A DNA stretch of 63,465 bases, the filler included, from Sluysia triapertura (Eukaryota), in assembly GCA_046118255.1 (NCBI GenBank). It is 5 parts of 5 records of this genome, joined end to end, with 100 filler letters (N's around TTAATTAATTAA, not from the genome) between each part and the next. Parts side by side here need not be neighbours in the genome. Positions count along the whole stretch, not along the records: positions 10,888 to 23,541 come from JBJNIA010091788.1; 4 more parts are not named here. One strand, written 5' to 3'. The first letter of the stretch is position 1; each line of letters opens with the position of its first letter. The position numbers and the translations under genes were made by a program. Below, in pieces: positions 1 to 34,994 of this stretch. Below the pieces are notes generated by a model. That model did no database searches and was not told the DNA's origin. It worked only from the letters and a program-made list of their open reading frames with translations.

Positions 1-73
<73 letters not shown>
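1..73. repeat. (ATA)n microsatellite
   Basis: Perfect ATA trinucleotide run at the window start. Confidence 0.95.
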
Positions 74-74
<1 letters not shown>

Positions 75-129
75 TACTATGGTTTTCTAAAACTTAACCT
101 ACGTTCAGATCAATGCAGCAAAATAAATT

Positions 130-1003
130 ATCAGTATGACTTCTCGTCCATATCTGCATCATGGTATTCGCATAAGAAGTGAGGCGAAGAATCGGTTACT
201 GATCTGGGCGGTGAATGAAGTAGTGGTGATTGGGCAAATAACCATCCTGGATCAAGTGCATTGGGTTTGGTTGTGGAATACTTCGTCGCTTGATTGGACT
301 GGGTTTGATAAAATCATTGGGTTGTGATAATACTGGATCAGGCACTGAATATATATTGATTATATATGTCATACATACGCGCATCATTAAAACTGATTGT
401 AGGCTTATCATTTGCCAGCCACCGTACATATTCGTAAACAGGAGGTGGTGCTAATGGAAATCCGGTAGTGGTTCATACTTAAATATATGATGGATAGTAT
501 ATCGATCGTAGTCATCATGATTAGGACGTAAGCATGGATATCTACATCTATTTGATACGAACATAATAACTGCTAATATAACTATTGCAAAGGCAATAAT
601 AAATAATATTGCCGCTAAAAATAATATTACAAAGTCAGATCGTTTTTAACATTTCTGATAACGATAAATATTTCTTTGTTCCCTACAGTGCAAAGTGTAA
701 ATGGTGATACATATATTCTTGCAATGACAAAAAATCAGAACATATGGCTGTAGGATTTACCATATTTTTGATATAATATTGTTGGACATTCCATGAACTA
801 AAATTGAGTCTTGCAGGTTTTAAGTACATAAATAAAACTTGAATATCATTTTGTAACACCTTAACTCTGACATCTGTACCATAATTACGGAATTCAAGAT
901 ATTCGGCTTTGTAAACGTTTTCATCGTTTATATTACATTGTACTGTAGTAATCATCATTGTTAACATTAAAGGTATTACATTTTTATTACTGTTAACGTG
1001 CAT
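130..1003 (-). pseudogene. Decayed single-pass membrane protein ORF (signal peptide, ectodomain, TM, Pro-rich tail with PPPVY)
   Basis: ORF 683-1003 starts with a hydrophobic signal-like segment. After a stop and frameshift the minus strand reads FVILFLAAILFIIAFAIVILAVIMF (TM), then GFPLAPPPVYEYV and a Pro-rich tail. Confidence 0.45.
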
Positions 1004-4000: not shown

Positions 4001-5388
4001 TTCTAATAAAGCGTGTGTTTCATCAAAACCCAAACAAGAGTTAATAATATTTCTGTTAAACATATTGATAAATACTTTACTAGTTATCTACCCATACGAG
4101 ATTATAATGATGATAAATGTTCTCATGCAATTGAAGATTGGCTAATTCAGGTGTGCCTGTATTTATTTGTTGATTTTCGTTATTTTGTTTAATATAAAAT
4201 TCCTCGTTATTTGTTTAGTTATTTTCGAATTAATTTTGTAATTTTAGTTGAAGGCATGAAGCCTAAACTAAACATTTTTGAAATGATTTCTATGTTTTAT
4301 TACGAGTTAATAAACGTTCTTAAAGTTATTTTTAAGTTAATTCATAAGATAGTTAATCTTTATGTCGTTAAAAATTCGTTGATAAAAATTTTCATATAAT
4401 TAAAGCAATAAATGTTGAAACGCTGTCCACAAATACATAATAAAAAGCTTTTACCATAATAAAACAGATATAATTAATCTTATCAAAGTAGTGAATTTGG
4501 AGTATAAAAGAACAGCGACAAGAACTTTATGAAATTTTTCTTAAACATCTAAATTTGTTTGAAAAAATTTGTAATAACTAAAGTGGTTGCTCAACTACTT
4601 TGTCCCTTGAAGATACATATTCGGAGAAAATTTTTGACTATTGGAGAAAACCTAACCGGAGAAATTGATATTAAATTTGCTTGAGGATAAATCGTTTAGT
4701 TTTTACTAAATATGTTTAACACGTTTTACTCATGTATAAGTCACCACTTAAAATATCACATATATTTATCACTATTTTAAGTTGTCATTTTTTAAATTAG
4801 ATTTATTGAATTAAATACTAATTGTTAGATGGTTATTCAAAGAATTGCTCATATTTACCCTTTTTAAATCGGGTAATTTTCAGAGTTGTAAAGTTTATAA
4901 GTTCAAAAGTTATTCAGTCAATAACCGATTTTATATCGGTAGAAAAATATATTGATTTCATATGATCCATTTTAATAAGAATCAAAGCAAAATTTTAAAA
5001 GATTAATCTGGCTCTTTTGGCGGAATTTTAATAAACATTAATTCTACCCAATAAATTATTAACTTATACAGATATAATCTTTTAAAATTAGTCGTTCTAA
5101 TTCTAAAGCCGATTCTAGAATTCGGTTGTAAATTCACTTATCTTATAGATTCTTTTTAGTTGGAATCTAGTATAAATTTTAAAGCGAAAATTAAACATCT
5201 TCACTAAAGTTAGTAAGTCAACCTCCACGATATTAGAACTACTCACTAATTGAAAATAATTATGTTGTATTCCCTTTATTAGGTTTAATTAATATGTTAC
5301 ATTTTAAAATCTTAAATCCTACAAACTAGTCGTCACTCGTAAGTCTAGGATTGTGGGCGAACTCACGGTAATAAATTCATTTATTGGT

Positions 5389-5995
5389 TGTGGTGGCCAA
5401 CCTTTTCATTTAAAATTTATTACACATACTTAATATCATTTTTTTTAACATTTAACATTTTACTTTTTCAGATTCATCAAAATCCTTTTACATTTTAAAA
5501 CATTTTAAATCCACAATCTCATAACATTAAAATTATACCTACATTCAAAACCATTAAATGTACATTTCAAATTTTATTTAAAACATTTCAAGTTCACAAT
5601 TGTTAAACATTCATTCATTAACATCATTAAAAAACATTAAATTTACATTTCAAAATCATTTTAAACATTATAATCAAAATGTAACTTCTTACATTTCCAA
5701 TTTTATTAATTCATGTCTCCAAATTCTATTTTTTCCATAACATTCTCTACATTTTCACCATTCCATGAAAGAATATTAATTTGAAGAAATAGTTACACAC
5801 AACTTTTAATTTAAGAAAGGAAGTAATAAATATCTTTATTTTTATGAAAGAGAGCTGTTTCTACAAAAGAAATTTATGTTGTATTGTGTGCTTATGTATT
5901 TTATATTTTACAAAATATAAGATACAAAGAAAGAGAATGTTATGTTTGCTTTATGTGTTTTCAATTCAATCATTTTATCATTATTTGTTACATTT
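5389..5995 (+). mobile_element. TGTGGTGGCCAACC-headed dispersed module (solo-LTR-like), copy A
   Basis: Starts TGTGGTGGCCAACC. G-poor body with ACATTTTAAA-like imperfect repeats. The 3' part (CAAAAGAAATTTATGT...TTATGTGT) is shared with copies at 14791 and 58896. 3' end approximate. Confidence 0.55.
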
Positions 5996-6061
5996 TACTA
6001 TAATTATTAAAAGATTTTATGTAAAGAAGTGATTTATAAAGTTTTTAGAGTTTATGCATTT

Positions 6062-6194
6062 NNNNNNNNNNNNNNNNNNNNNNNNNNNNNNNNNNNNNNN
6101 NNNNNNNNNNNNNNNNNNNNNNNNNNNNNNNNNNNNNNNNNNNNNNNNNNNNNNNNNNNNNNNNNNNNNNNNNNNNNNNNNNNNNNNNNNNNNN
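6062..6194. other. Assembly gap
   Basis: N run. Confidence 0.99.
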
Positions 6195-7050
6195 TTATTA
6201 TATAACTTGTTGTTAGCCGACAGTTTTAATTAAAATTAATGCATATTTAGTTGCTTAGTGTACAACTGCTAACACAGATGAAAATTATTGACTATCCAAT
6301 CATAGCTAATTAGATTTAATTAAAATTTACGATACAGAATAAATTGATTTAAAATGTGTTTCAAAGTTTATAACGAATTATTATATACAAACTTGTATTT
6401 CAAAAAGTATTTTAACAGCAGATTAAAAAATTAGCCTACAAAAATACAACGATCATGCATTTTGCTACTTTAAAAAATATTTATGATATATTTCAATTCT
6501 GATGTTGAACGATTATTCGGATAGTGAATTTGATACTAAGTGCCGATTTTACTAACAATGAAAACAATGATGTTAAATCTATGGCTATTAATTCAAGTCG
6601 AGTCTTAGTCGGACCTTTTATTATAAGTAATTTCATATTGCTATTATACTTTTTATTAATTAAAAATTCAATTATTTGTGTTCTTATCTTTATAAATTCA
6701 TAGTTGCTTATTTTAATTCAATGTATTTATTAAATTTGTAATAAAATATAATTTGAATATTTTGGAGTTTAAGTTTATTGTTAATTTTACGTTAAAATTG
6801 TGACATAAGTCAAGCATGTCTCTTTTATAGTGCAGAAAGTTGAAAATTATTATTGGCAGTATTTTGATTACAGTGTAAACTCATCAACTCTTTAGAAAAA
6901 TCGGAAATCTAACGATTATTATAGTAAGACTTCATAAAGAACTAAAGATAACAGAGTAATACGTTTTTATACGAATATTGTTAATCTTATTCTTACATAG
7001 ACTTAAATATTACATGCACCAGCGTTGGTCGTGATTATTTTTAAGCTATT

Positions 7051-7270
7051 TGTGATGGTCAACCTTCACTATTATTAAATTTTATAAAAATATAATCCTT
7101 TAACACTTTAACATTCACCTATTTATTTTCTCTACATTCACGAAAACAGTTCATTTGCCAGAATCAAGTTATATCCACAATCCATAACATGAAAACCACA
7201 CTAACATCCAATACCATCAATTTACATCAACAGATCCATCAAAATATGTTACTCGACATTCATAATAACG
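7051..7270 (+). mobile_element. TGTGG-module, short copy B
   Basis: TGTGATGGTCAACC head followed by the same C/A-rich, G-poor body. Confidence 0.45.
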
Positions 7271-7332
7271 TTATTGCTATTATTATTGATATTAAAATTC
7301 ATTAATTTATTTAATATCGAAATCAGTATCTA

Positions 7333-7490
7333 CCATCACCAGTACTGTTATTGCTGATTATTGTATATAGATTTATGTCAGTACTGATGGTGGCTAATCA
7401 TTCAATTATTCTATTTTAATTTTACTATTAGTTGTCCAATCAGTGTTACACTGATTATCAAATTTTACAATTTCTGATTGGACAACTAAT
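7333..7490. promoter_or_regulatory. Double inverted-repeat cassette with paired ATTGG-N4-CCAAT-type palindromes
   Basis: IR1 7333-7347/7379-7393 (13/15 match). IR2 is a perfect 16-bp TTAGTTGTCCAATCAG/CTGATTGGACAACTAA at 7428-7443/7474-7489. A homologous cassette lies at 59858-60022. Confidence 0.45.
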
Positions 7491-7726
7491 CAGAACTAGC
7501 TTATGTACAAAAATTTTTAAACAAAAACATTTTTATGTGAGTACAGCAATAACGAATAAAAAAGAAAAGTTGTCAAAAATTGAAAAAGAATTAAAATTAA
7601 CGCCAAACTAAATAAATTCTAATCAAATAAATAAACTAATCAAAATTCTAAAATCGAATTAATTGTATAATTTCGTCAATCAGTAAATGAAATTAAAAAG
7701 CTATTTGGAGCACAATATGATTCTAA

Positions 7727-8880
7727 TTGTCAACATCTGATATCCTAATGAAGTTTTCTTTAGTATCGACTGAAAATAGTAGCAATCTATTTAGTTTATT
7801 AATTAATAACTTATATGTAAAATTCGAATGTGTCAATTTTGAGTGTATAGAACGATGTTATTCAATTCGCGTATGCAATTCAGGATACATAGTTCTAGTT
7901 TTAGAATGAATAAAAGAATTGGATTCAATTTATACATATAGTAATCATTTATTATTTTTCAAAGAACAAGTTCAGTTACTAATAGCGAACGTTTTAACGA
8001 GATATATTATATCTCTCAATGCTCATTTACTCTCAGAGAATACGCTTAAAGAAAAAAGTCAAATGAATAATATGGAAAAATCTATGATTCTCTTAATTGA
8101 TTTTGTGAGAGTCTACGGTTGTAATGATGATGACTGTTCATAGTATACAGCGCAAGATAATGTCTTATTACATGTTGCATATTTATTCAGTCATTTTACA
8201 TCTTTTCATAATGAATCACTAATAGTGTTTTGTGATTATTTACTTTATTATGTGTTGAATGAGAAGGAAGTAATAAATGTTCGTAGTAATTCTGTCCATT
8301 ACTTGGCAAGTTATATCATTCATTTTGACAATGAGCATACATCTATTAAGTTTATATTTAAAGTGATTGATCGAATTTTCACAGGTGTTCTAAAGTTATT
8401 TGATTTTTCAATCTTTTTGATTTACAAGACAAACATCGCTTATAAAAAGTCTAAAAAAGTTAAATTGATTAGAATTGATGATCATGGAAAAGTCCTTTAT
8501 AATGGCTTTATGAACGATGTCACGACTGGTGAATCACATGAGATTTGTTTAGAAATAATATAGATATTATCCAGGCCTGATGCAACAGCTGTCTATGTCT
8601 TGCTGGAGATTTGTTCAATCAAGAACGATAATGAAGATGAACTAAGCGAGCTTGATTGTGTGGATTGCCCACTATTTCATAATCAAAAGGTTACCTCATC
8701 GGCTTTATTAATTTTACTGTGCTCTTATGGTGTTGATATCAATGGCAAGGACAATGTAATTATTTTTTTGTTTATTTTATCTATAATTTAAACTTTCATT
8801 TTATTCTAGATTATGAATCTTTGGCTGAACTGAATTACGTACGCGAGGATATAGCAATAAAACTTAAACCTTTTGTTTTA
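7727..8880 (+). pseudogene. RRN3: RRN3/TIF-IA-like (RNA Pol I initiation factor) pseudogene
   Basis: ORFs 7727, 7919, 8225 and 8600 share one frame broken by three stops. Segments YSNHLLFF..IISLNAHL, MEKSMILLIDFV and HVAYLFSHFTSF...VRSNSVHYLASYII match the order and pattern of RRN3 motifs (YVxNLL..LLKLDV, LDxLM, HVQFxxFYxCSF...RxxAxxYxxSFLAR). Putative 54-nt GT-AG intron at 8756-8809. Confidence 0.55.
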
Positions 8881-9429: not shown

Positions 9430-10740
9430 GTGGTTACGACAATTTGTTTTCTGTTAAAGTTATTAATGATATAGATGATTATACTAAAGTTGATGATGAT
9501 TTATATAACAACTATATGCAATTATAAAGTTAAGTTTAGCCTGATCGACATTAGTAAAGATGTTAATGTTCTAATTGTCATTGCTCAAGATGATCAGAAT
9601 AAGGATAATGATGATGATGATGATGATAAATATAACAATTAGCAAATATGTAATTATAAAGTTATTAATTCTAAAGACGATAAGAATAAAATTTGTGATG
9701 ATCACGTCTAAAACTTTAGAGCATATAATTTTGAAGATCAGTATAACGCACGATTGGCATTAGTAGAGATAACAATTTAAAAAATAACAATCTTGAAGAC
9801 GACAAGGTCGAAGTTATTAATGTCGAAGTCGAGTATTGTGATTCTAACAGTCACGACGATAAAGATAACAATGCTGGATATGAGGCTACGCAAATTAGGA
9901 GGAAGAAATATATTGATTATCAAATCAACAACGAAGAAGAACATGATGTTTTATTTAGCTGTTATGAAGACAAATTGTATAAACCTAAACATTACAAAGT
10001 CGATTTCTTTAATATTTATATAAATAATGTGTTTTCGAACTTTATTATTATAAATTAAGTGTAATTAATTTTCTTAATGATAAAAATAATATTTATTCTG
10101 TTGATAAAAATAAACCTACAATTTGTCAAAGGTCAAACATTATTAAAACATTATTACGTCAAAGCCAAATATAATAACAATTATTGATTTTAATTACTAT
10201 GAATATAATAACATTTATTGATTTTAATGATGACTGATTTTATTATTATTGGATTTTTATTTAATGACATTGGATTTTTAAATAATTTTTATTACTGTGA
10301 GTTTATTAATCTTATTAAATTTTATTATTAATTTAATAATTTTATTTTCTTATTAATCTTATTTTGTTATTAATTTATTAATTTTATTCTTAAAATGTTA
10401 AATTTTGTTAATTCATTTTGTTTTAAATAATTAATGAAAGGTACAACAATGACAATGAGTATTTTTGTAATGACTCTCGAAGTAGAGATAATGAGCATGA
10501 TTATTGCATGTTAAATAGTATAGCTGCTATGTGTCCAGCTCTTACTGATAATAATGGTATCTGCTTACTGCGTGGGTTGTACTGCAGATACACTCATTCT
10601 GTTCAAGATTTGAAGAGCAGCAAAGAAAATAAAGCAACTTTCCACTTACACTTGCAACGAATTACAGAGTTGCTGAATAATATTGCAGTTGTTTCCAGCA
10701 TTTCAGGTGGCAATAATTTATTAGACGACGTCAAGATAAG
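9430..10740 (+). pseudogene. Asn/Asp-rich protein with C-terminal CCCH zinc finger, copy 1 (decayed)
   Basis: D/N-rich codons with stops at 9430-10080, homologous to 60203-60950. ORF 10508 contains CPALTDNNGICLLRGLYCRYTHSVQDL = C-x9-C-x6-C-x3-H, a TIS11-like CCCH pattern. Confidence 0.6.
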
Positions 10741-10787
10741 TAATGTTTACTTCTATTCATTGTGTGTTAACAATTATTATTACTGTT

Positions 10788-10887
10788 NNNNNNNNNNNNN
10801 NNNNNNNNNNNNNNNNNNNNNNNNNNNNNNNTTAATTAATTAANNNNNNNNNNNNNNNNNNNNNNNNNNNNNNNNNNNNNNNNNNNN
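10788..10887. other. Assembly gap with artificial TTAATTAATTAA linker
   Basis: 100-bp N-linker-N spacer; identical design at 23542, 35182 and 48664. Confidence 0.97.
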
Positions 10888-10934: not shown

Positions 10935-12330
10935 AAATTTTAATTAATTTTTAATTATGGAATGGTTAATTTTTTATACTTAGACTAATGCAAATATGAT
11001 GAATGGAATATGAGATGATTGCTATGAAAGAGGAGAATCTATAATTGAGTTCGAAATGTTTTTAAAATGGTTCGTTTGAGAATAAGAGCCTTAAAACATT
11101 TTTCATTAGAAAATTTGGTGTAACAAATAGAAACTTAATTAAATAATATAAAGTGAAATTAAATAGTATTGCTGATTGTTATTTTAATGTGAGAAATAAT
11201 TTAAGTAAAAATAGATTGAGTAGAGTAAAAGGAAATGACGCCTAATAATAAATCAGATTTCTATGTTTTGTACTTAATGTAGTTTGACAGACCGTACCAT
11301 GTAATTTTCAAAGTTGTAGTCGGTCTGATTCTCAAAGAGGTTAGGATGATTTATGTGAGAGAGTGTTTGATTATGAGACTTGGAATTGATTGGATGACGA
11401 AAGAGTATAAAATAAAGATTTCTAAATTTTTAACAGACAATAACAAGATAACAACAATGACAATGATGATGATAGATATGAAAATCCATACATAGAGTAA
11501 AGTGATTAATTTTTATTCATTTATTATTTTTTTAAAATAATATAAATAATTAATCTTATTTTAATTTGAATAATTTTAATATTGTGTCATTTTTAGTTAA
11601 TTTTTAAGCTGTTTTTAAGAAACTCCCTACACAATTTTTGTTAAAATTATATTTGATTTTCAGCCATTGTTAAGATAATTTTGTAAGAGACTCCCCACGC
11701 AATTTTTGTTAAGATTATATTTGATTTTTAGTTATTTAAAGTAATTAATTAAGAACCAGTTTACGTAATTTTTGTTGAGGATTATATTTAAATTGTATTT
11801 GATTTTCAGCTATTTTTAAGGTGAATTGAATAGAAACTCCCTACGCAATTTATTCTATCAAAATATTAAGTATTTTATCTCTAGAAATTACTGTTTAAGC
11901 TATTCTTACCAAATTATTTTATTGTAGTCGTAATAATTCTTTGTTACGTTGACCAAAATATTTAGATAACATAATTACCATTAATTTTCTAGATATTGAT
12001 ATTGTTAGTGTCTGTTGCGTCACTCCTGGTTGTTTCGTCTTAATTAGATTGTAATATCCTTGATTATATTATAAACGCTATTTTTATTTTTGTTGTTCTC
12101 AGTATTTAGTAAAGATTCTTATTGATAATAAATTATATAACGATTTTTTGTTTAATAGTACATAACTGTCTTAGTTTTGATTTAATTTTCAAGAACTCAA
12201 ATTTGGAGTAATCGTTATTAATATTATAAAAGAAGATTACTAAAAATTATACTTGATACATTGACTATTTAAATTATTAAGGTTCATTTAAGCTAATCAA
12301 GTTAATATTGAGTTGTAATAACTAATAATT
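10935..12330 (-). repeat. ~1.3-kb dispersed repeat, inverted copy of 62290-63465
   Basis: e.g. TAATGCAAATATGATGAATGGAATATGA at ~10986 is the reverse complement of sequence at ~63390-63417; similarity is colinear along the block. Confidence 0.85.
11618..11860 (+). repeat. Imperfect ~70-bp tandem repeat, about 4 units
   Basis: Recurrent ACTCCC(T/C)AC(A/G)CAATTTTTGTTAA(A/G)ATTATATTTGATTTT at ~11621, 11690, 11756 and 11836. Confidence 0.7.
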
Positions 12331-14790
12331 TTAATGATAAAACTTATAAAATTTCAGTTTTCCACTCAACACAAGCCTGTTTAAGGTCTTGTATGAAAAA
12401 TTAAATAATTTTATTCTTCTTAAGATGAATAGATAAACCCTATAAAATAAAAATTACTTGAGCATGGAGCACAAAAAGTTCTTCAAAAGTATTTTCGCCA
12501 AAAAATTTTACAACTAAAAACTTCTGTTTGAACTAAAAAAATTGCCTAAATATATACTGAATTTTGCAAAGCCATTTTGAAAATACTTACTAATGGTTAA
12601 ATTAAACAATTTTCTTTCTTCAAATTAATTTCTTAACATAAAAATTTTTTCTTAATAAAAACATTAAATGTATTAAATATTAAAATATTAAAAGTTAACT
12701 TTTAAAAATTTAATAAAGTATTTACATTTAAAATTTATTTAGAATATTAGGATTTATATTTTTTAAATATTAAACTTTATTTTAAATTAAAATTTATTTT
12801 ACTTAAAATTTATTATAATAAAAATAATCATTTATACACAAAAAATATTATACAAATTATACAAGAATATAAATTATTTTATATAAAAATATACATAAAA
12901 ATAAACTCTGACATCTAGAACAGTACCGAATTAATGATTTTTATGTCAGACTGAGTTATATAACGTGCTGCATAAACTGGTTCTGTCCATTTAAACTGTA
13001 TAATGTACGACGTGAAAAGATTCAAGTGGAAAAATTAATAAACTGGCTATGTGGTCAACAAATCTTCGAATAAATATTAAGATTTATAAGTAAAACTCTT
13101 CTTTGTGAGTACTTATGTGAATGAGTCTTCTTTATGTACTTTTCTCTTGGCATCCAGTGTACAGTAAATTTAGTAAACTAAATTTAATAAGTTCAGTTTA
13201 ATGCATTTTCAATTTTTTTTGCAATTAATTTAAGGCACTTCCTGTCTGATTTTAATTTTATTTATTTATTTTATAATTTGTTTAATAGTACTTTCCGTCT
13301 AGGTAAAGTTATTTTAACCATTTGTTTATTTTTAATTAATATTGTTTTTTAATTAATTTTTTAATTGATTATCTTTTTAATTGCAGGAGATTTCAGATAA
13401 TATACTAATTCAATTAATGAATGATAATTTTGATGAAATTTAGCAACCTTACAAAAATATTATTCCTGCGTGTTTATTAACTAGATCCAAATTATGCACA
13501 ATTATGGCAATTAATATTTAATACAAGGTCTTGTTGTATTGAGAATGTATCCGCAAGAAAATGGCCATATATGAGGAAGAACATAGTTTTCTAAACGAAT
13601 TAGAGCAAGTTTAAAATAGGAATTAAGATTGTGTTAAGATGATTAATTAAGATGATTGAGGCATAGTGCTAGATCGCCTCTGAAGATGGTAACATAGACT
13701 ATGTTCTTGTTGAGATTAACTGTTTTCTTTACGATTGCATTTTTCTGAATTAAGATCCAAGATTATTTATATGTAAGTATCGACAAATAACGTATTAAAA
13801 TTGTCTTTAAAACTTATTTGGAACGGGACTTTAAAATTTAATGTTAAGTTAATTTACACAATATTTTATGAAATCCCAATTATGATTGTTAACTTGTTTA
13901 CGTTTAAGTACGACTGTGTAACATTTGAATTTTATTGCAACTCTTATGGTCTTTATCATGCGTATATTTAATTATTTGTGAGATTTTAATTTATTTCTAT
14001 GAATTTTAACAAAGCACTACATTTTATAATTCGAACTAATTAGGGAACAATGTGATCCCTAAACATATATTTACAAGTAATAATAAAAAGACGTACGATT
14101 GTTATTCATAAAGTTATAAAATATGAATAAAGTGGCTTTATAATAATATGCAATCAGAATATGAGACTTACAAAAATGATTTTGTTATTATATAAAAAGG
14201 AATTGAATTATGACAATAAATGTTAGCTAGAAATTCAATTTTTATTGAAACAGTGTTTGCTGAAGCAATTTAGATATTGCTCCTATGTTTTAGAGTAATA
14301 TGATTCAGCCATAACTATCTTATTAAGTTAGATTGAACGGTTTAAGCAATGATTAGGTTTCCAACTATGATCTGATGTATTTGTCCTTTTGTTATTTAAA
14401 TACTGGTTAATTACTAATAATAATTCGAATAAAAATCTAGAATTTCAAAAAGATTTTTCTTCGATTGAATCCACACGTGAGGATATAGATTGATGCATTA
14501 TATAGTTGCTTAAATACCTTGGATTAACAAGTATTTTTTATCTTAGAATTTCTAATAATGTTTTTATGTTGCTCTGTCTAACTGGGTCAAAATCTAGTAG
14601 AAACTTAATCGAGTGTTGGTAGTAACATTTCTGTTTAAGGTGTTTTTTTAGTAATCCCAATTTTACATTCTAGTATCTTTTCAACATTTATATAAAAACT
14701 TTTTTCTTTAAACGTTAACTCGTTAGGTTTTGTCAAGTTGTAAATTTTATGTTTTATTTTTATGTCAATTTAATTGTAAAATTTATTTTA

Positions 14791-15650
14791 TATGGTGGCC
14801 AACCCAATAATTTGAAATTTTACATCAATAAAATTAACAATCACTCTTTAGAATATTTCATAATTGCTATTACCTTCAAACATTTTAAACATAAAATTTC
14901 ATAACATCAAAATCATATTCGACATCGAAAGTCATCAAATATATACTTAAAAATCTATTTAAAACATTTTTAAATTTAATTCAACATAGCGCACATTCCA
15001 TAATATTCTAACTATTTTTCCATGAAAAAACTTTTTCATATTTTATTCCTTTCAGAACCACTAAAACTAAACATTTTAAATTTACAACCCTACTACACCA
15101 AAACCACATCTACATTCAAAACCATTAATGCACATTAAATTTTATTCAAAACATTTTAAATTCACAAGTTTTCAACATCCAAACTTTACCTTCAGTCAAA
15201 ACCATCAATATATATTTAAAAATTCATTTAAAACATTTTATTCATTATTTCATAAAATCAGAATTACAATTTACATCTTAAATCATCAATATATTTAAAA
15301 ATTTATTTAAAACAATTTTATTAGAATCTCAATTTACACCTTAAATTTGAAAACATATATCTTAGAATTGACTCAAAACATTTCCAGTGCTCAATTCATT
15401 CACACTCAATCATTTACACCTTTTAATCGTTTTTAGTATTTTTGAGTCAACAAATTCCACCTTTTCTAAATTCATTTATCTATATGTTAAGGATGAGAAT
15501 CAAATATAATAAAGATCATGTTTATTATATTAAGAAAGATTTATGTGTCTAATTTTTCGTCATTACATCATTATTATTTTATTTATTTATTATTATTATT
15601 TTTCATGCTATTATTATTTTTAATTTCTCATTATTACTAACAACAATTTT
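14791..15650 (+). mobile_element. TGTGG-module, copy C
   Basis: TATGGTGGCCAACC head, ACATTTTAAA-rich body, shared 3' AAAGATTTATGTGT segment. Confidence 0.55.
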
Positions 15651-15767
15651 AATTTATTTTCTGTCAAGTTTTACGTTTCTGAATTATTTGCTGCTAAAAC
15701 TGCATGGTGACAGGCATGCATCTGAAATATAATACACACTAATTTGGATAATTTTACAGAACAATTA

Positions 15768-15832
15768 ATTGGGCGTCCAATCAAAGCTAATTCTCCATAA
15801 TTATTGTGATCTATGAGGATTGGGTGTCCAAT
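15768..15832. promoter_or_regulatory. Paired ATTGG-N4-CCAAT palindromes
   Basis: ATTGGGCGTCCAAT (15768) and ATTGGGTGTCCAAT (15819), 51 bp apart, upstream of a decayed ORF at 16056. Confidence 0.45.
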
Positions 15833-16055
15833 CAAGATAGACAACAGCAAATTAAAAATAGTTGCAATTTTAGTGTTACGAGGCACAAATTAAAAAATTA
15901 AAAATTTAATTAGAAAACAATTTTGATTCTTATATTCACGTCACTATGTAATATCCAGTTATCGTATTATTAGTGAATCCGGTAATGCACACTATTTTTA
16001 TGATCCATGAATTTCAACAATAGGCATACAAAAAACATTTAGTTCTCCATTATAA

Positions 16056-16600
16056 ATGTCGTTCAAATATTTTATTAGAAATATAGTACTCGATTTTCAA
16101 ATAATAAAATTTAGTTATGTTATGTATTCTGTTAACGGCAAGCAAATAAAAGATAGTAGATTCGAAGATGGATGTTATGTAATTCCATATTTTAAAGACC
16201 AGAATTATTCAATAAATAATTTTGCTAACCCTAGGTTACTTATAAATAAAAAATTAGTTCTAGCTAGTATGTCTCATAAATTACACGTTGCATTGTTATA
16301 ACCTTGTATTGTTGAAGGTTATAAACCTTTTGAATAATGAAATTAATTAAATCTATGTTAGATTAGTTCAAGTACAAAATATTAGTACAAAAAGTTTAAC
16401 TGCACCATTATACCCATCTCAATTAAAAGAAGTCACTACGATTAGTAAAAACGATAAAAAAAAGTCATAATTTTAGGTCTAAATCAAGCCTATGTATTTA
16501 ATTACAAAATGCTAAAGCAAGATAAAAGTGCTGATAGATTAATAACAACAATTGATGATCAAATTACAATAATACCTATTAATGTATTTGTGGAAATTTT
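16056..16600 (+). pseudogene. Decayed coding sequence of unknown family
   Basis: 81-aa ORF with codon-like continuation through stops; truncated by the repeat starting at 16639. Confidence 0.25.
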
Positions 16601-16638
16601 AGTTAAATTAAATTAAATTAAAGTACGACTTATTTTAG

Positions 16639-17497
16639 TGAGTCCTCTATGATACTGAGCTTATTCACTTAAGGGCCAGTACATAAATCTTTTGTAGCTT
16701 TGAAGAAAGATAAGGATTTAGGTCTTTGTGTTGTTTTTAATTCTATTAAATTTAAATATTATTGAGATAACTTAATGGACAACTTATTCTAACAGACGTT
16801 GAATGATTGTTCAACTATTGAAATTTTTACTCGATATTAAACTAAATGTACTTCTCGGAATTTATTTACTGACTGAAATAATACAAAAATTTATTAAAGT
16901 AACTTATAACACGTAAATATACAAAATACCAATTCAATAGACACAAAGTATATAATGTTTATAAATACACAAAACTAAAACGAATGATCAACTATACACA
17001 AAAGTTTGTAGACAAAAGAGTATATTATAATTAAGTCCTTAGGGCGTAACTAAGCCAATTAATTTTTGTAATATTATTGTGGTAAATAATATATGTTTTG
17101 TAATATTATTACAATAAATAATATTAATTCAATTTATGAATTTATGTATAAAAATATTTAAATTGTTAAAAATATTAATTTACTAATTAATATTTGACTG
17201 TTGAAGTTTATAAAATATTTTATATAGTACGAAAGTTTACAAAAATATTTAAAATGTTAAGTAAAGTTTATATTGACTTTAAATTTATAACTTAGTAATA
17301 ATAATAACTAACGATTAAGCAGAAACGACTATGAAATCAAATTATTCTTTATAATCTTCTTCTTTAAATAATTTCTTAAAATATTATCTCTTGAATAATT
17401 TTCTTCAATATAAATTTCTTCAAATATTGATTATTAATTCTTCTTTTAATCTCCTCCAAATAAAATTTTAAAACTTTGTTGTGAAGTTATTATTTCA
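16639..17497 (-). mobile_element. LTR-like repeat (TGA...TCA) abutting a minus-strand polypurine tract
   Basis: The left end TGAGTCCTCTATGA..GCTTA..CACTTAAG recurs at 39393. The right end ...TTTCA is followed by AATTCCCCCTTTA (minus strand TAAAGGGGGAATT-TG). Confidence 0.5.
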
Positions 17498-19104
17498 AAT
17501 TCCCCCTTTATATACAATCAACAAGAAATCAATTTAAACAATATTTTTATTTTGTTTTAATAATAATAATTTTTTAAATATTTATTTATATTTTATGTTT
17601 TAATAATAATAGAAAAATTTTTTAAATATTTTTAATAAAATATTTTAATAAAATTTTTTAATAAAATATTTTTAAAATATATATATATATTTTAATATAA
17701 TAATTGTAAAAAATATAAATATATAATAATTTGATATTATTTATTTAAGATAAAAAACTAAAAATACTAATAAACATACTAAAAATTAAAAATTCTAAAA
17801 ATGCCTTTACAAAGCAAAGAGTTTATAAAAGAGATATAAAAGTTTCATTAGAAGATATAAGAATGGCATTATCTATGTACAAATCTAAGAAATATATGTC
17901 GCATATAACAAATAATATGGAACACATGGTCTTACTTCCAGAAACGCGTAAATTTGAAGCTAACAGCTTCAAAATTATTTGACAGGCTTAGCCATAGCAC
18001 TTATAACTAAATAGATCATGCGAAGAAAAATAACTGGAATATTTTTGTTAATTGCTTTAGATGACATAGGAAAATATTCACAAAAAAGGTTAAATGTAAG
18101 AAAACAGAAACCCCAACTGTATACGAATTTTCTTGCGCACTTAAGTGTTTAGTGGCAAGAGCAGAAACTTCTAGAAGAAAGAAAGAAAATAACTTTAAAA
18201 GATAAATTCAAAAGTGGATTACGCCCTGAAATAAGGATTTATGTAAGTTTAATAGATAATTAATCTTTTAAAGAAATAGTTAAAAAATTAAGAAGTATGG
18301 AAAGATCAGGTATTGAAGAAAACGATAATATAAGTTATATAAGTAATAATATTAATATAAATACTAGTAATTTAAAAGAAGAATCATATAAGAATAAAAG
18401 TTTCGAAGAAATTATTAGCCTTCAGGAAATAATTATACAGGTTATAGAAATAACATAAACAATTTCGGCTCAAGAAGTAAATACAACAAGAGGATTTGAA
18501 AGAAATTATCTAAGCAACGAGAGTTCGAACAAAGACCATTGACCAGATGGCCAAAAGCCAAGATAATAATTTTACAAAAAGAAGTAAAAGCCTTGGTAGA
18601 AACAACAATAATGAAGGAACTAGTAAATCTAAGGTTCAGACAAACATAAAGGAAGAAGTAATTTGTCACAATCGAGCAACTAATATCTAATACTTTTACT
18701 TGAGAATTAAATAAGATACAACCACTGAAACACGGCTACGGTAAGAAAAGTAAGATTCGATAAGGGAAATGATAAGGATAGTAATGATTCTTATAATTAT
18801 AATTAAATTATAATTACTACAATATGTAAGACAAAAGAAGACAAGTTTCGATGAAGATTACGAAGAGAGCGAATAAGGAAAGGTTCTAGGTAGTCTAACA
18901 GAAGAAGAAGTAAGAGTATTACAGGAGTTCCAAAGAATGAAGGTAGACAATGATGATTGGGAGGAAAGAAAAGATAAGTCAAAAAGAAAGAACGAAGAAG
19001 AAAATGAAACGTTTATAAATTATCTGTACGATTATTTTCTAAAATTTTTGAAGAGAAGACAGGAAAAGAAAAATACGAGTTTGAGATTAAAAAAAGGGAT
19101 ATAC

Positions 19105-19263
19105 TGTTGGGGTAAAAAAAAGCCTAAGGTGCCATTTGGTAAAATTGACAATAATAAAATAAAACTGTTAGACGGAGCTAATAGCTTAGTGGTAGAGCAT
19201 TCGAACTGCGCAGCGAAGGTCCCGGGTTCGATCCCCGGTCAGTCCATTTTATGAAGTCTAACA
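19105..19263 (+). mobile_element. 159-bp tRNA-containing element (solo-LTR/TRIM-like), copy 1
   Basis: TGTT...AACA termini; ATAC target-site duplication (19101-19104/19264-19267); same length and layout as 25811-25969. Confidence 0.85.
19175..19246 (+). tRNA. tRNA-like Pol III unit (Ala-like consensus, 8-nt anticodon loop), probably element-borne pseudo-tRNA
   Basis: A box TAGCTTAGTGG, B box GGTTCGATCC, D and T stems pair, loop ACTGCGCA, followed by TTTT. Mismatches in the acceptor and anticodon stems. Confidence 0.7.
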
Positions 19264-20142
19264 ATACTTGAAATAGAAAAATATAGAAAAAGAATAGACG
19301 TATGGGATAGATGTGAAAACAAATAAAGATGTAATATTGGAAAATAACCAGGAAAATGATTCAAAAGGGAACGAGGAAGAAATACCTGAAGAAGAAATAT
19401 CTGAGAAAATGTATTTATTTGAAGAATAAACAAGCTTAAGTGAGGATGAAAAAAAGATGACACTAATGAAATAGACTCTGAAATCTTAAGCGAAATCCAA
19501 TAACAATCTTAGTTAATGAAGAAAGAGAACGAAACACTCCAGAATCAAAGGATAAATAAGGAAGTACAAATGTTTCTTACAGACTTACGAAGAGGTATAG
19601 AAGAAGCAAAGAATATAGATAAGAATATAGACGAGTTACTTATTTGAGAGATGACAAAGTAATTTAGTAATTTTATGTCTAGAAGATAGTCCATATAAGA
19701 TAAAAACTCGAAAATTATTAAAGTAAATTTTGCTAAATAGAAAGAATGGAATATCCTAAGGCTTTAATGGGAATTAATGTAACAATCAATGAATCAATAA
19801 ACGTTTTTATGGAGTTTCCGGAGACTACATTGGTAGAAGAAGTTATCGACGTCATTAAGGTGAATGACGCATCAATAATAAATGTGAAATTTATTACCAG
19901 ACGAATACTTAAATTATTATGGTTGTCCTTTAGGAAAGCACAACTATATATTAAAAGTTTTCATTGAATATGCAATCCAAAATAAACCTATATGTGGAGG
20001 GATTTGTCTTTTTTAAGTTTAAAAAATTATTAAAAACATTAAAATTTTCAATTAATGATGAACAATTTAAACAAATCATCGAAACAATTAACAAAATAGG
20101 CTTAAGACCTTTTAAAAACAATTTTGAAAATAAACCAAGATT

Positions 20143-20609
20143 TTAATGCGATATATTAAGAAACAAGAAAAATTTTATAAATACAAATATAACCGCTAAT
20201 ATAATGTTATAGAAGTTTGGTATTGCCTGATTAACTGACAGACTGCCTACTGTTACCATGAGGAAAACCAAGACTATGTTACCTCCAGTGAGTAGATTTA
20301 CTTTGTAAGCTTCTATTAGTTTGTCATTTAAAATCATGAACTATAGTATGAATTGAACTATAGTATGACTAGCACACAACCGATTAAACTACATGTAAAC
20401 AGTTGTCCAATGATGAATATTTCATCACAAAATTCTTTAAACTCATTAATAGTTGAAATATTTGTTTTAATTTTTGAATACTTAAACCAATTATTCGAAT
20501 AAAAATCATACTTATGTAAAGAAAAATCGTAACGTAAGACATTATTTGTTTGTGCATAAATCACTTCATTTCTACAATATGTACTAAACATCATCCAGCC
20601 TAAATCCAT
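20143..20609 (-). pseudogene. Multi-pass membrane protein-like ORF split by one stop
   Basis: ORFs 20358-20609 and 20143-20337 contain three hydrophobic stretches; no family recognised. Confidence 0.3.
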
Positions 20610-21136
20610 GAGAAATTATCAATGTTATTAAATGTTAATACACATAATTAACCACTTAACAGTCGGATTTTTTTGAGAAAATTGGTAAAAAACTGTCACT
20701 CTTTTATTTTTATGTTGTGTCTTTTATACTTTTTATTTCGCAAATTACAAATCAAAACCCAACAATTGAACAACTTCAGAATCTCGATATATTTTTTGAA
20801 TAATCAAAAATTACAATTTAAAAAATAATAATTATTCTTTATGACAACAACAATATAAAATACTCTCTAAAACAAAATACAAACTCTCTTTATATAAAAA
20901 TTTTAAATTACTCTCTATAACCACGTAAATTACTCTTTAAAAACAAATTAAAAAGCCAGGGGTGACACAACTTAAATCCTTGCTCCCGATATTAATGCAA
21001 AATACACTCAATACAAAATAGATAACTAACCCTAATCCACCTCGAGTCATGCACAAGCTAAACTATTACTTAAAATTTTTATATAAGTTTAGGATTTATT
21101 ATATATATTTTTTATTTTTAGTTAAAACAATTAGCA

Positions 21137-21442
21137 ATGTCTTTTTCCACTTGTGCCATTTGTCTCCGTTTTCTTCGCAAATACTTTGCTAAAACTTCCC
21201 CTTGCTTTCACCGCTTTCATTTCTTTTGTCTCTACCATCTCTTCGAATCCTCTCCATTACCTTTACCAAGTTGTCTCTTATGCAGAGCCACTATTAATAA
21301 GTGCGACATTTATTACAAACGCTGCTTCCGACGATCGTACGAATTCGCAGTCAAATATATAACCGACGACTCGGAAGAAACCGGTATTTATGTATATCAA
21401 CCGGCATCGCCTATAAAGGAAAAAAGCCTTAGTAAGAATTGA
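21137..21442 (+). CDS. RING-H2 (C3H2C3) zinc-finger protein, putative E3 ubiquitin ligase
   Basis: CAIC-x13-C-F-H-RF-H-FF-C-x14-CLLCR: all eight ligands present with canonical spacing, directly after an ATG. Confidence 0.8.
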   Translation: MSFSTCAICLRFLRKYFAKTSPCFHRFHFFCLYHLFESSPLPLPSCLLCRATINKCDIYYKRCFRRSYEFAVKYITDDSEETGIYVYQPASPIKEKSLSKN

Positions 21443-21683
21443 TGGATAAGACCTCCCCCTAACTTCTCGTCAGGTTTATCCAAATCACAAAGACACAACA
21501 GACGAAGGCGTCAATTAAAACATTTTATAAAGAAAAAGAAGCAAATATGTCTAAAGCTCCGAAACCTATTAATCCCTTTTTAAAGAGAAAACATTAGCTC
21601 TTCCTAACTTATTTTATTATGTTATATTATTATATGATTTTAAATATTGACAAAAAATAGCCTACTTATTTAAATTATTTTTC

Positions 21684-22463
21684 TTGTATAATTTTTATTT
21701 TTCCTTCCTTTTATCTTCAATCACATCCAAGCAAAACTACTTGACCAACAAAAAATTTTTACGTATATATCGATCGCTATTGCCACGAAAGTATTACCTC
21801 TGCTTTTTTTCTGCGACTCGGTCTCGACACCCATCACCTATATTTTCATTAAAACCAGAATCCCCATTTGTCTCGCTTGATGGTCTTTCGCAAGTTCCCG
21901 AAACTATAACTTCTCTTTACTTAGTTGTTGCCAGGGGCGTTGTAAAAGTTACCTTAATCGAAAACGGCATACCATTTCTGGCTCGAGTTCATGGTTTCAA
22001 TTCGTTACATATTACTAATTTGAACAAAAAGTGTAACGTGATAATTGAAGCAACAGAATATCCCAATTCAATCGCACTGCTTTTCCCTTTGTCTACATCT
22101 ATCTTCCAATCTTTTCTTCCAAATTTATATAAAAACGACACAATAAACTTGGCACGCTGGCAGAACGGAACATCTTTTACTCATGTTCCCCCAATGACTG
22201 CCTACGACGAAGATCGTCTAGTCTTTGTGGCTTATTCCTACGCCCACGATTTTCTTAATTGCCCGCACTTAACTCAATTGTCTTGTATCCCTTATTCGAA
22301 ACAGTTTCATACTGATATTAACATTAAACCTCGTCTCCGAATAAAGAAGTTTTTGAGAGATATCCAGGAGATCAAGGATTCGGACATCTCCGAGGCTAAA
22401 GACATTGATGATGTCCCCCCCTTCTTACTGGGTCATCTGCATGATAAAATCATGGTGTTTTGA
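21684..22463 (+). CDS. Orphan ORF (259 aa) in LTR-element 3' region
   Basis: Longest ORF of the window, locally GC-elevated, globular-looking; true start uncertain. Confidence 0.55.
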   Translation: MYNFYFSFLLSSITSKQNYLTNKKFLRIYRSLLPRKYYLCFFSATRSRHPSPIFSLKPESPFVSLDGLSQVPETITSLYLVVARGVVKVTLIENGIPFLARVHGFNSLHITNLNKKCNVIIEATEYPNSIALLFPLSTSIFQSFLPNLYKNDTINLARWQNGTSFTHVPPMTAYDEDRLVFVAYSYAHDFLNCPHLTQLSCIPYSKQFHTDINIKPRLRIKKFLRDIQEIKDSDISEAKDIDDVPPFLLGHLHDKIMVF

Positions 22464-23077
22464 ACCCATGTTTTGTCATTAAAAGCCTCAATTTGCCTTT
22501 TGGTTGGCTGAAAGGAGTCATCAACTTAACCAATCATAATCTTCTTTCTTATACAACTGACGATGCCATTTTACGTGGACGGCAAACCTTTAGGTTATTA
22601 TATCACGTACCACCCCGCATGACCTGCTCACGGATGGTTTTTGAGTTGGTTTCACTGTTGGATCTGATCCGTGAGAGGGACTTATCCTTTATCCCAAATT
22701 GCTCTCTTCCTCCCCCTTCACTCTTTTCTACTTCTAATACTACTAATAATGCTTTCATGGCACCATCACCATCATCATTATCAGTACCAACAACATCCTT
22801 AGTACCTGCGTCATCATCAACATCTATATTGCCATCATCATTCACACTTATGTCGACAGCACCAACTACTTCATCGTCATCAAACTCCGCCAATCCTTCC
22901 GAGTCTCGACCAACCAAACAACGTACTACTCGTAATACATCGCCGAGCCCTACGCAAATACGTACGGTGAGAACACGTCCTTTAAACCCTGGAAAAAAAG
23001 GACGCTATCAATCTATGACGAGTCCGGCCTATCCGTCGCCTTGGGATGACGACAGAGATGTTGACTTGGACAACTAA
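22460..23077 (+). CDS. Orphan ORF (205 aa) with Ser/Thr/Pro-rich disordered C-terminus; probable -1 continuation of 21684-22463
   Basis: Overlaps the previous ORF by 4 nt in the -1 frame, has the same composition, and ends ~130 bp before the PPT. Confidence 0.55.
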   Translation: MNPCFVIKSLNLPFGWLKGVINLTNHNLLSYTTDDAILRGRQTFRLLYHVPPRMTCSRMVFELVSLLDLIRERDLSFIPNCSLPPPSLFSTSNTTNNAFMAPSPSSLSVPTTSLVPASSSTSILPSSFTLMSTAPTTSSSSNSANPSESRPTKQRTTRNTSPSPTQIRTVRTRPLNPGKKGRYQSMTSPAYPSPWDDDRDVDLDN

Positions 23078-23187
23078 CTCATAATCATGACAACCACATT
23101 GTCTCTTTATCATGATTATTATTATACTCACTTTTTATACTTTATTTTAGTGATATGTATCGTCTATTTTTATTTTTTATGCGTTTC

Positions 23188-23222
23188 GATTCGAGACGAA
23201 TCTTCCCTGACGGGGAAGTAAA
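23188..23222 (+). promoter_or_regulatory. Gypsy-type 3' hairpin and polypurine tract
   Basis: GATTCG-AGA-CGAATC hairpin, then GACGGGGAAGTAAA immediately followed by TGT; typical TCGxGACGA...GGGG..TGT end of Ty3/gypsy internal regions. Confidence 0.7.
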
Positions 23223-23541
23223 TGTAAATATTTAAATATGTAAATTTTATGTAAATTTAATTTTTAATTTTTAATAATTTCTTAGTTTTGTATTAAATTA
23301 TGCAAATATATAAAAAATTATGCAAAATCAAATAAATGTAAATTAATTATTTAATAATTTTAATTCTAAAATTGAATATTTACATTAAATTATCACCGGA
23401 AATCCTTTTTAATTTTATTGAATTTTAGACTATTAAAATAAAATATTTATATAAAATTGACGAGAATCTGGAATATTTATGTAACGGAAATTTAAATATT
23501 TATTTAAAAATAAATGGCATATAAAAGCATATAAATAGAGC
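23223..23541 (+). mobile_element. 3' LTR (truncated by gap)
   Basis: Begins TGTAAA right after the PPT; AT-rich, with TATAAA/TATAAAT boxes near 23520-23537. Confidence 0.6.
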
Positions 23542-23641
23542 NNNNNNNNNNNNNNNNNNNNNNNNNNNNNNNNNNNNNNNNNNNNTTAATTAATTAANNN
23601 NNNNNNNNNNNNNNNNNNNNNNNNNNNNNNNNNNNNNNNNN
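23542..23641. other. Assembly gap with linker
   Basis: N-TTAATTAATTAA-N. Confidence 0.97.
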
Positions 23642-23710
23642 TGGTGTCAAAGTGGCGGCCCGCGGAGGCAAATCATGCGGCCCGTAAAGCAAAAAGGTTT
23701 GACACCACTG
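23642..23710. mobile_element. Miniature hAT (Buster/Charlie-type) MITE
   Basis: TGGTGTCAAA...TTTGACACCACTG terminal inverted repeats with internal GCGGCCCG motifs; left CAG is lost in the gap. Confidence 0.75.
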
Positions 23711-23749
23711 CCTTAAATTATAGCACTATATAAAAGACAATTTTACATG

Positions 23750-25810: not shown

Positions 25811-25968
25811 TGTTGGGGTAAAAGGCCTAAAAAGTGCCAAGTAGTATAATTGAATATATGAAAAATGAAATTGTTAGACGGGGCTGATAGCTCAGTAGTA
25901 GAGCATTCGAACTGCGCATCGAAGGCCCCGGATTCGATCCCCGGTGGGTCCATTTTACGAAGTCGAAC

Positions 25969-25969
<1 letters not shown>
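25811..25969 (+). mobile_element. 159-bp tRNA-containing element, copy 2
   Basis: TGTT...AACA termini; ATAA flanks on both sides (25807-25810/25970-25973). Confidence 0.85.
25881..25952 (+). tRNA. tRNA-like Pol III unit (Ala-like, 8-nt anticodon loop)
   Basis: GGGCTGA-TA-GCTC-AGTAGTA-GAGC-A-TTCGA-ACTGCGCA-TCGAA-GGCC-CCGGA-TTCGATC-CCCGG-TGGGTCC-A followed by TTTT; perfect 5-bp anticodon stem. Confidence 0.7.

Positions 25970-26013
<44 letters not shown>
25970..26013. repeat. (ATA)n microsatellite
   Basis: Trinucleotide run immediately after the 159-bp element. Confidence 0.9.
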
Positions 26014-33809: not shown

Positions 33810-34322
33810 CGATTCCGTTTACATTATTATATATTCAAACAAAATTTTATTCGAAGCTAAATAATTATTGAGACAATTTGAAATATATAAAATGAAATAT
33901 GACATTTCCAAATACGGAAAAATGTCATTTGCACAATTAAAAATACTTTAAAATGTGACAAAATCTGAAAATATAGAAAATAAATTTAAATGTAAATGAT
34001 ATTGCTAAGTACTTTACGGTATTTACTTGTATTTTTGCTTTTGTAAAATTGAATTCATTGTACTCCAATTAAATAACGATAACAATAAACAGATAAACTA
34101 AATTAATAAATTATTTAATTAAAAAATTTCCATTTCAAAGTGCTAACATTAATGATAAACCTACAAATAAAATAGAATATATAGTTATATATTTTTGTTA
34201 ACTTTAAGAAAATAATTAAAATACTTAAATAACAAACTATGAAAATTTATTTTTATTTTATTAATAATATTCATAAATGTGTTACTTACTAACTCTAGTA
34301 GATGATATTATGGATTTTATAG

Positions 34323-34599
34323 GCGCTGCAAATTTTATCAGTCAAACAGCGGCAGCAAGTGGGGGTAGATTTTCACCAAGTTTACTGAATCCTGCTGCAG
34401 CAGCAGCTGCCGCGGTTCAAAATCCAGCTGGCAATGGTGCACCCCATTTTTATTCTTTCCCAGATGTAACTGGTGGAGTTGGAACTGGAAATCCAATGTG
34501 TACTTTACCAAATGGTCAGAATTTTTCATTCAATTCATATTCGGCAGTAGCTGGAGGATCATCATTTAGAAATTCAGGGCTTGTTTCAGATCCAACTAG
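34323..34599 (+). CDS. Host gene exon 3 (AANFISQTAAASGG...GLVSDPT); Ala/Gly/Tyr-rich transcription-factor-like N-terminal region
   Basis: TTTTATAG acceptor in phase 1 continues exon 2; open GC-elevated frame with poly-Ala. The donor AG|GTTCGA is weak, so the end is tentative. Downstream exons not identified. Confidence 0.75.
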
Positions 34600-34994
34600 G
34601 TTCGATTTTGATTATTGTTGTAATCGTATTTCCTACATTATAGTACAGTTCAATATTATCTCTCTTATATCCAACAAATTCAATAAAATAAAATATGTTA
34701 TAAGCATTTTATTAATACGACTATTATCTGCTAAATAAAACAAGAAAATGGTCTAAGGTTTTGAGGTTAACGTTTCAAGAATAATCTCAAGTTCCTTTAA
34801 GAGTCTTTGAACCTTCAAGGTATTGTTCAGTGCCAAAAATGGCCATAGATATTTTCATCTTCAATAATATTATGTCAACTCTTCATGTATTTATCCAATT
34901 CCATGTTTTCTTTACTCACATATCTTAAGCTTTGATAGGCTCATTTGTGCCAATTAAATTAGCTCGATTGTTATTTATAATCAATTGAGTTATA

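Follow-up and report, generated by a model that had tools for sequence, protein, structure and literature searches.

Additional DEDD-superfamily reading frames and RING cargo have each already been described in LTR elements, in separate lineages. In bdelloid rotifers, the LTR retrotransposons Juno and Vesta carry a DEDDy exonuclease as their ORF3 (Rodriguez et al. 2017, PMC5408684, in the excerpts consulted), and the main text of this paper makes no mention of a RING. The giant gypsy-like element Burro (GYPSM1) of planarians carries RING-related (AIR1), BIR, MATH and ubiquitin-like domains, and the excerpts of a review suggest that this cargo interferes with host ubiquitination (PMC6431247); an exonuclease is not mentioned for Burro in these excerpts. 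In the vertebrate proteins PML-I and Plex9 a RING is combined with a DEDDh fold, of which the catalytic residues have been lost in amniote PML, and which, according to the excerpts of PMC10123124, acts on retroelements by binding nucleic acid without cutting it.

In the window, by which we mean the whole stretch of 63,465 nucleotides of Sluysia triapertura DNA analysed here, we recognize with moderate confidence a decayed multi-copy repeat, likely of the LTR type, that is predicted to carry a RING-H2 gene and a catalytically dead DEDDh-like gene in the place of env. As in Juno and Vesta, to judge from the excerpts, a DEDD-superfamily domain would here form an extra reading frame in the env place, without membrane segments. 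The ORF3 of Juno and Vesta is described in these excerpts as an RNase D-like DEDDy protein with intact catalytic residues, whereas the gene in the window is of the DnaQ/PolC (DEDDh) type with its acids seemingly lost; also unlike them, it is a long gene with extra N- and C-terminal regions and has a RING gene in front. The preliminary description of this DNA did not count RING cargo among the standard components of gypsy elements; Burro, as excerpted from PMC6431247, is a precedent for it in a gypsy-like element. In Burro, an element of 30 kb, the domains lie within a polyprotein of 4,900 aa, whereas our RING is a small separate ORF near a purine tract. PML, in turn, is a host restriction factor with the TRIM arrangement of RING, B-boxes and coiled coil (RBCC; excerpts of PMC10123124), whereas the genes in the window sit in a mobile element; unlike that of PML, their RING is of the H2 type, and the likeness is one of analogy only. 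Pfam scans of three frames of 21101-23262 returned no B-box family. A search of the literature found no pair of RING-H2 and inactive DEDDh genes before the purine tract of an LTR element, although catalogues such as Repbase may list the family.

The RING gene and its immediate surroundings comprise the following features.
21100-21134, + strand: T-rich tract with AG dinucleotides just 5' of the RING ATG (from the sequence).
21137-21442, + strand: RING-H2 gene, 101 codons in the window copy (from its ATG start, C3H2C3 spacing and Pfam and PDB matches).
21443-21583, + strand: RING frame past a stop private to the window copy, 46 codons with an Arg/Lys-rich stretch (from translation).

The zinc ligands C6-C9-C23-H25-H28-C31-C46-C49 (codons 6-49, at 21152-21283) follow the C3H2C3 pattern, which occurs once in the six frames of the window and in none of 20 shuffles of the window or 2000 shuffles of the region. 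Against Pfam, the frame matched zf-C3HC4 with 24.2 bits (cut-off 21) and zf-RING_2 with E 1e-5 and 26.1 bits, the latter below the cut-off of 27.3. Searching PDB with the protein gave 46 matches at E <=1, nearly all of them RING proteins, with BRCA1 as the best (E 0.006); a word-based homologue search found none (1 candidate). Ile8, Leu10 and Arg50 occupy what we take to be the usual places of contact with the E2. From its zinc-ligand spacing and its Pfam and PDB matches, the RING-H2 protein is likely an E3 ubiquitin ligase. The ICP0 protein of herpesviruses is a viral RING E3 ligase, and fingers of the ICP0 type are C3HC4. Like proteins of this type, ours is a RING protein that is small, has a basic tail and belongs to a genetic parasite. 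The RING domain of EHV-1 (1chc) was among the PDB matches (E 0.09), but the two share no closer relationship than the RING fold itself.

Evidence on other copies came from one public run, X1, in the form of short contigs; X1 contains 43% of sampled words. At residue 47 the window copy has Leu, versus Pro in BRCA1, and most X1 contigs differ from the window copy there. The stop at 21440 is missing from 1488 of 1506 depth units (9 contigs). It is thus absent from nearly all other copies, and in the window it truncates a frame that is otherwise open to 21583, so that, of the intact RING-H2 ORF previously proposed, the frame at 21137-21442 and a motif beyond chance stand and the intactness does not. 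The Arg/Lys-rich stretch past this stop is a possible nuclear-localisation signal, and the T-rich tract before the ATG could serve as a splice acceptor for a sub-genomic RNA. Over the first 140 bases of the gene (21125-21266) the summed depth of X1, which is no copy number, was 7,385-8,639 versus 324-3,676 over the rest of the RING-to-ORF2 region, an excess of 2 to 25 times; sibling families may share the start of the RING.

Downstream of the RING two long frames are open, one of 270 codons (21651-22463) and one of 209 codons (22448-23077), and in them we place two features.
21721-22463, + strand: ORF2, a beta-rich N-terminal part and then the onset of a putative DEDDh exonuclease-like domain (from alignment to the protein P0004 and from profiles).
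22463-23077, + strand: ORF3, the remainder of the putative exonuclease-like domain in another frame, and then a Ser/Thr/Pro-rich tail (from alignment to P0004).

None of 2000 dinucleotide shuffles reached the length of the 270-codon frame (shuffle mean 103). ORF2 has no in-frame ATG before 22194 and ORF3 none before 22619; the exonuclease-like domain would run from about 22200 in ORF2, with its best match at 22314-22457, and the tail of ORF3 spans about 22739-22972 (59% S/T/P). With ORF2 as the query, HMMER found a single match in the 1.84 billion representatives scanned, the singleton P0004 (365 aa, E 1.6e-4). Residues 106-269 of ORF2 are 26% identical to it over 164 columns (pairwise E 4e-12) and residues 6-37 of ORF3 are 44% identical to its residues 276-307 (pairwise E 2e-8), the ORF3-matching part starting two residues after the ORF2-matching part; in a multiple alignment the similarity reaches back, in the frame of ORF2, to about 21750. 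Since the continuous P0004 matches both in order, ORF2 and ORF3 are pieces of one gene. What had been taken for two overlapping orphan ORFs is therefore a single gene, spanned without a break by a 365-aa relative, and the 259-aa ORF and 4-nt overlap reported for them need, by arithmetic from the stated lengths, TTG starts at 21684 and 22460. Coupling of two ORFs through a TTG/TGA overlap was rejected, because the relative is continuous and TTG starts are unexpected in a eukaryote. With P0004 as a relative, and with a signal of the DEDDh fold that is weak but consistent, the long gene is no longer a pure orphan, and conservation of P0004 at about 25% identity implies that the protein of the family has long been under selection. 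Further relatives were sought by a word-based homologue search with ORF2, which was blank (462 candidates), by a homologue search with a three-row profile (P0004, the ORF2 piece and the ORF3 piece), which returned P0004 only (4450 candidates), by scans of metagenome and viral contigs, which revealed no relative, and by phage tblastn with P0004, which gave one chance match.

The frame break between ORF2 and ORF3 lies near 22458-22462. A difference in length is seen there in just 63 of 727 depth units (a single contig of X1), so that the split may be common to many copies and not private to that of the window, although coverage at the break is well under that of the bins next to it and three of the joints listed break off at 22456-22458. 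No canonical -1 slippery heptamer was seen there by eye. Regarding env, the best 19-residue hydropathy window was <=1.6 in all four proteins and Pfam returned no env match. Without a membrane segment the long gene is not an env gene, and we rejected an env function for it.

Two Atlas searches placed RNase_T/DEDDh clusters among the top named matches (0.75-0.85), which we treated as leads only. Against 177,635 PDB sequences, the only match of the three-row profile was the PolC exonuclease 2p1j (E 0.0057 for the whole, 0.0022 for the domain). We then compared the profile by hhalign with 11 DEDDh proteins, namely 10 of 30 listed phage exonucleases plus E. coli DnaQ (80 enterobacterial dnaQ loci were left out as too alike), and obtained a probability of 80.5% and E 1.3e-5 over 59 columns, values that apply to a match of about 60 columns only and to a family picked after the first leads. 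None of 200 column shuffles reached the score of 38.7 (the highest had 24.7), and the reversed control scored 18.1; four other template masters gave probabilities of 70, 80, 76 and 38%. When a DEDDh HMM was run over 751 targets, ORF2 came first and P0004 third, with one shuffle between them (a shuffled P0004 at 12.1 bits versus 12.0 for the real one). Pfam, NCBIfam and PHROGs gave no exonuclease match for the long gene, and a single-sequence PDB search with ORF2 one chance match. AlphaFold yielded models of poor quality (pLDDT averaging 40.4 and 37.2), and with them Foldseek against PDB found nothing at E 0.001, a BFVD fold search nothing, and the VIA wide fold search a best Z of 4.4, to helical structures only. 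Taken together, the long protein probably has a DEDDh-like fold. The matched stretch lies between ExoI and ExoII of DEDDh; the Asp of ExoII aligns to Ile, ExoIII has no confident alignment, and the strand aligned to ExoI holds no acids common to both proteins. If the fold is of this kind, catalytic activity has very probably been lost.

On 21125-23250 we found 991 X1 contigs, of which 51, 137, 333 and 470 had identities of 99% or more, 95-99%, 90-95% and under 90%, respectively (803 of the 991 under 95%), and 30 of 30 bins were covered. Such a number of diverged contigs indicates a diverged multi-copy repeat family and not a single-copy gene. Overlapping contigs join the 3' end of the RING to the spacer that follows it (21419-21672, with 40 other letters) and this spacer to ORF2 (21543-21760), and they also run from ORF3 into the purine tract (22969-23213); no single X1 contig spans the whole of 21125-23250. 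The RING is therefore not a single-copy host gene, the case that would have spoken against the preliminary description, but belongs to a diverged multi-copy family, and other copies likewise link it to the purine-tract block. Of 446 differences between the window and X1 we examined the 40 best supported, 39 of which are in coding frames; by codon position they number 5/5/5 in the RING and its extension, 6/5/9 in ORF2 and 0/3/1 in ORF3, which are small counts. From its premature RING stop, frame break and broken acceptor, the window copy is dead, and with no strong codon-position bias in these small counts preservation of this copy by selection is not supported.

The genes also differ in composition from an A-rich stretch upstream of them.
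17800-18330, + strand: heavily decayed gag-like remnant (from capsid-type motifs).

The label gag-like is our assumption from these motifs; Pfam returned no gag family for the stretch and PDB nothing significant. The window has a GC content of 0.244 and consists of AT-rich sequence, tRNA-derived repeats and host exons (RRN3-like). The gag-like stretch has a GC of 0.28 and an A content of 0.455, versus a GC of 0.39-0.45 and a C+T of 0.54-0.60 in the RING and the two long frames, which bears out the claim that the latter are compositionally distinct, richer in GC and pyrimidines. Each frame of 17800-18700 has 21-30 stops per 300 codons, with a longest open piece of 64; being far more decayed, the gag-like stretch would either stem from a separate, earlier insertion or have died before the master copy spread.

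A composition so sharply unlike that of the gag-like part, the decay of the window copy without strong codon bias, and the many deletion joints by which other copies drop the genes and retain only the purine-tract block would all suit a passenger, that is, a captured fragment of host-gene or DNA-virus origin that came to lie before a purine tract and was copied by a non-autonomous LTR derivative without any benefit; the ORF3s of rotifers, too, show no departure from neutrality in the excerpts of PMC5408684. We consider such an origin unlikely, since P0004 retains a continuous 365-aa frame at about 25% identity, copies under 90% identity retain the arrangement of RING and long gene, and homologue, metagenome, viral and fold searches found no close host or viral donor.

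From the end of the RING gene to the long gene there are two features that bear on how these genes might be expressed.
21432-21437, + strand: GTAAGA donor-like site in phase 1 to the RING frame (the sole GT[AG]AG in 21137-21720).
21584-21720, + strand: AT-rich non-coding spacer with a GC of 0.18, ending in a polypyrimidine tract (from composition and from indels in other copies).

Indels at 21617, 21652 and 21684 in other copies mark the spacer as non-coding, and a coding status of 21651-21720 was ruled out on the same ground. The GTAAGA donor noted earlier at 21432 is present, and its phase 1 fits the ORF2 frame at 21721 with an intron of 289 nt; donor 5-mers occur about 0.9 times per kb in the window, and the match alone is weak. 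At position 21720, all of 175 depth units (7 contigs of X1) differ from the window, and the acceptor there looks broken in the window copy and intact in other copies. Since donor and acceptor agree in phase and the acceptor looks intact elsewhere, a RING-pseudonuclease fusion made by splicing is possible in working copies. One could go further and regard the RING and the long gene as one spliced gene (donor 21432, acceptor 21720, intron of 289 nt) with a PML-like architecture, for which the shared phase and the acceptor of the 7 contigs would speak, as would the lack of an ATG in ORF2 before 22194, given that homology to P0004 begins near 21750. However, phases agree by chance in one case out of three, the donor 5-mer recurs as stated, the RING frame of other copies passes the donor and ends at a stop of its own, a RING is missing from P0004 as called, and an upstream donor in the LTR or gag could provide the start, so that we hold a single fused gene to be distinctly unlikely. 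Little credence, likewise, is due to the bolder proposal that an LTR family makes a spliced fusion of RING E3 and dead DEDDh domain that binds its own RNA or cDNA and ubiquitinates attacking host nucleases or piRNA factors, as a mirror image of PML on the side of the parasite, and that it is kept even in copies in which gag and pol have decayed.

The 3' end of the repeat, on which its assignment to the LTR elements depends, has these features.
23182-23198 and 23202-23218, + strand: two short hairpins overlapping the polypurine tract (from folding energy).
23223-23541, + strand: putative start of the 3' LTR (TGT...), 319 bases with 14% GC (from a depth jump and variant continuations).

Of the 14 bases at 23209-23222, 12 are purines, and TGT follows at 23223. 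The hairpins (23182-23222) fold with -16.1 kcal/mol (z -2.5; matched by 5 of 200 shuffles), and the putative LTR is cut by the gap at 23542-23641. Summed depth in X1, again no copy number, was 54,969 in the bin 23184-23250 versus 60-8,639 in the other 29 bins. Eighteen contigs have loose ends before 23188 and come to that point from a different sequence upstream, 23185-23197 is where several deletion joints of other copies end, and past 23221 a variant that likewise begins with TGT is found in 10 contigs. The depth jump, the joints and the TGT variants fit an LTR terminus common to many derivatives. On the other hand, no 5' LTR partner in 12000-21100 scored above shuffled controls (best 41 bits; shuffles 31-62), there was thus no 5' LTR end on which to anchor a primer-binding site, no target-site duplication was found, and in 17701-21200, translated in the three + frames with stops as X, Pfam found no pol domain. 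Since pol was not found, we file the window copy as LTR-like, non-autonomous or truncated, and not as gypsy; of the gypsy-type PPT/LTR previously placed after the ORFs, the purine tract and the TG start remain. The repeat could instead be no LTR element at all (a DNA transposon, a Helitron or a viral remnant), with the purine tract and TGT due to chance or to a neighbouring insertion, as the missing 5' LTR and pol and the unconfirmed gag would allow, and as might be read from the high-depth terminal block, which begins at 23188, upstream of the TG, with varied upstream neighbours. This we judge very unlikely given the purine tract with its TG start, variant continuations that start with TGT exactly at 23222/23223, and contigs that bridge ORF3 to the tract.

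If, then, the repeat is an LTR element with two genes in the env place, working copies would express both from spliced sub-genomic RNAs, a pyrimidine tract lying before each gene. The pseudo-nuclease would bind RNA or cDNA without cutting, as other inactive DEDD domains do, and the RING would recruit an E2 and ubiquitinate host proteins near the RNA or particle of the element; the most plausible benefit would be a blunted host restriction. The window copy itself is incapable of the functions proposed for the RING and the pseudo-nuclease. To our knowledge, retroelement-encoded counter-defence proteins are rare in animals and mostly uncharacterised, and if working copies use this pair against host silencing, they would offer a testable animal example of a ubiquitin-ligase effector in a transposon.

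Several other elements were observed around the repeat. Two tRNA-derived short repeat copies, 19156-19296 and 25862-26002, are 82% identical and probably represent a SINE; Rfam tRNA matches fall at 19175-19246 and 25881-25952, with no ARAGORN gene, and one of the two has inserted into the decayed gag-like region. Two protein-like open pieces, 19737-19964 and 19973-20140 (76 and 56 codons), lie between the gag-like remnant and the RING and gave no pol domain and no significant match in Pfam or PDB; a ubiquitin-like reading of the first, suggested by a likeness, was dropped as neither database supports it. Gaps of about 100 N at 10788, 23542, 35182 and 48663 share one 12-base palindromic linker, an assembly artefact and not biology, and directly after the second lies a short element with inverted ends (23643-23712) that, in our estimation, resembles a miniature DNA transposon. 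As to host sequence, pieces of an RRN3-like gene occupy 7910-8791 (Pfam E 1.4e-4; one frame with stops) and are exons or a pseudogene, and an exon-like frame at 34277-34738, with a poly-Ala run and no Pfam match, is probably part of a host regulatory gene. A piece of a UNK-like CCCH zinc finger lies at 10427-10789 (Pfam E 1.5e-5, below the cut-off) and a second copy, 71% identical, at 61089-61296, 50 kb off in window coordinates. These copies are followed by an inverted pair of repeats of more than 1 kb (10937-12195 and 62438-63465), 74-90% alike in pieces, which is probably a transposon or an old duplication.
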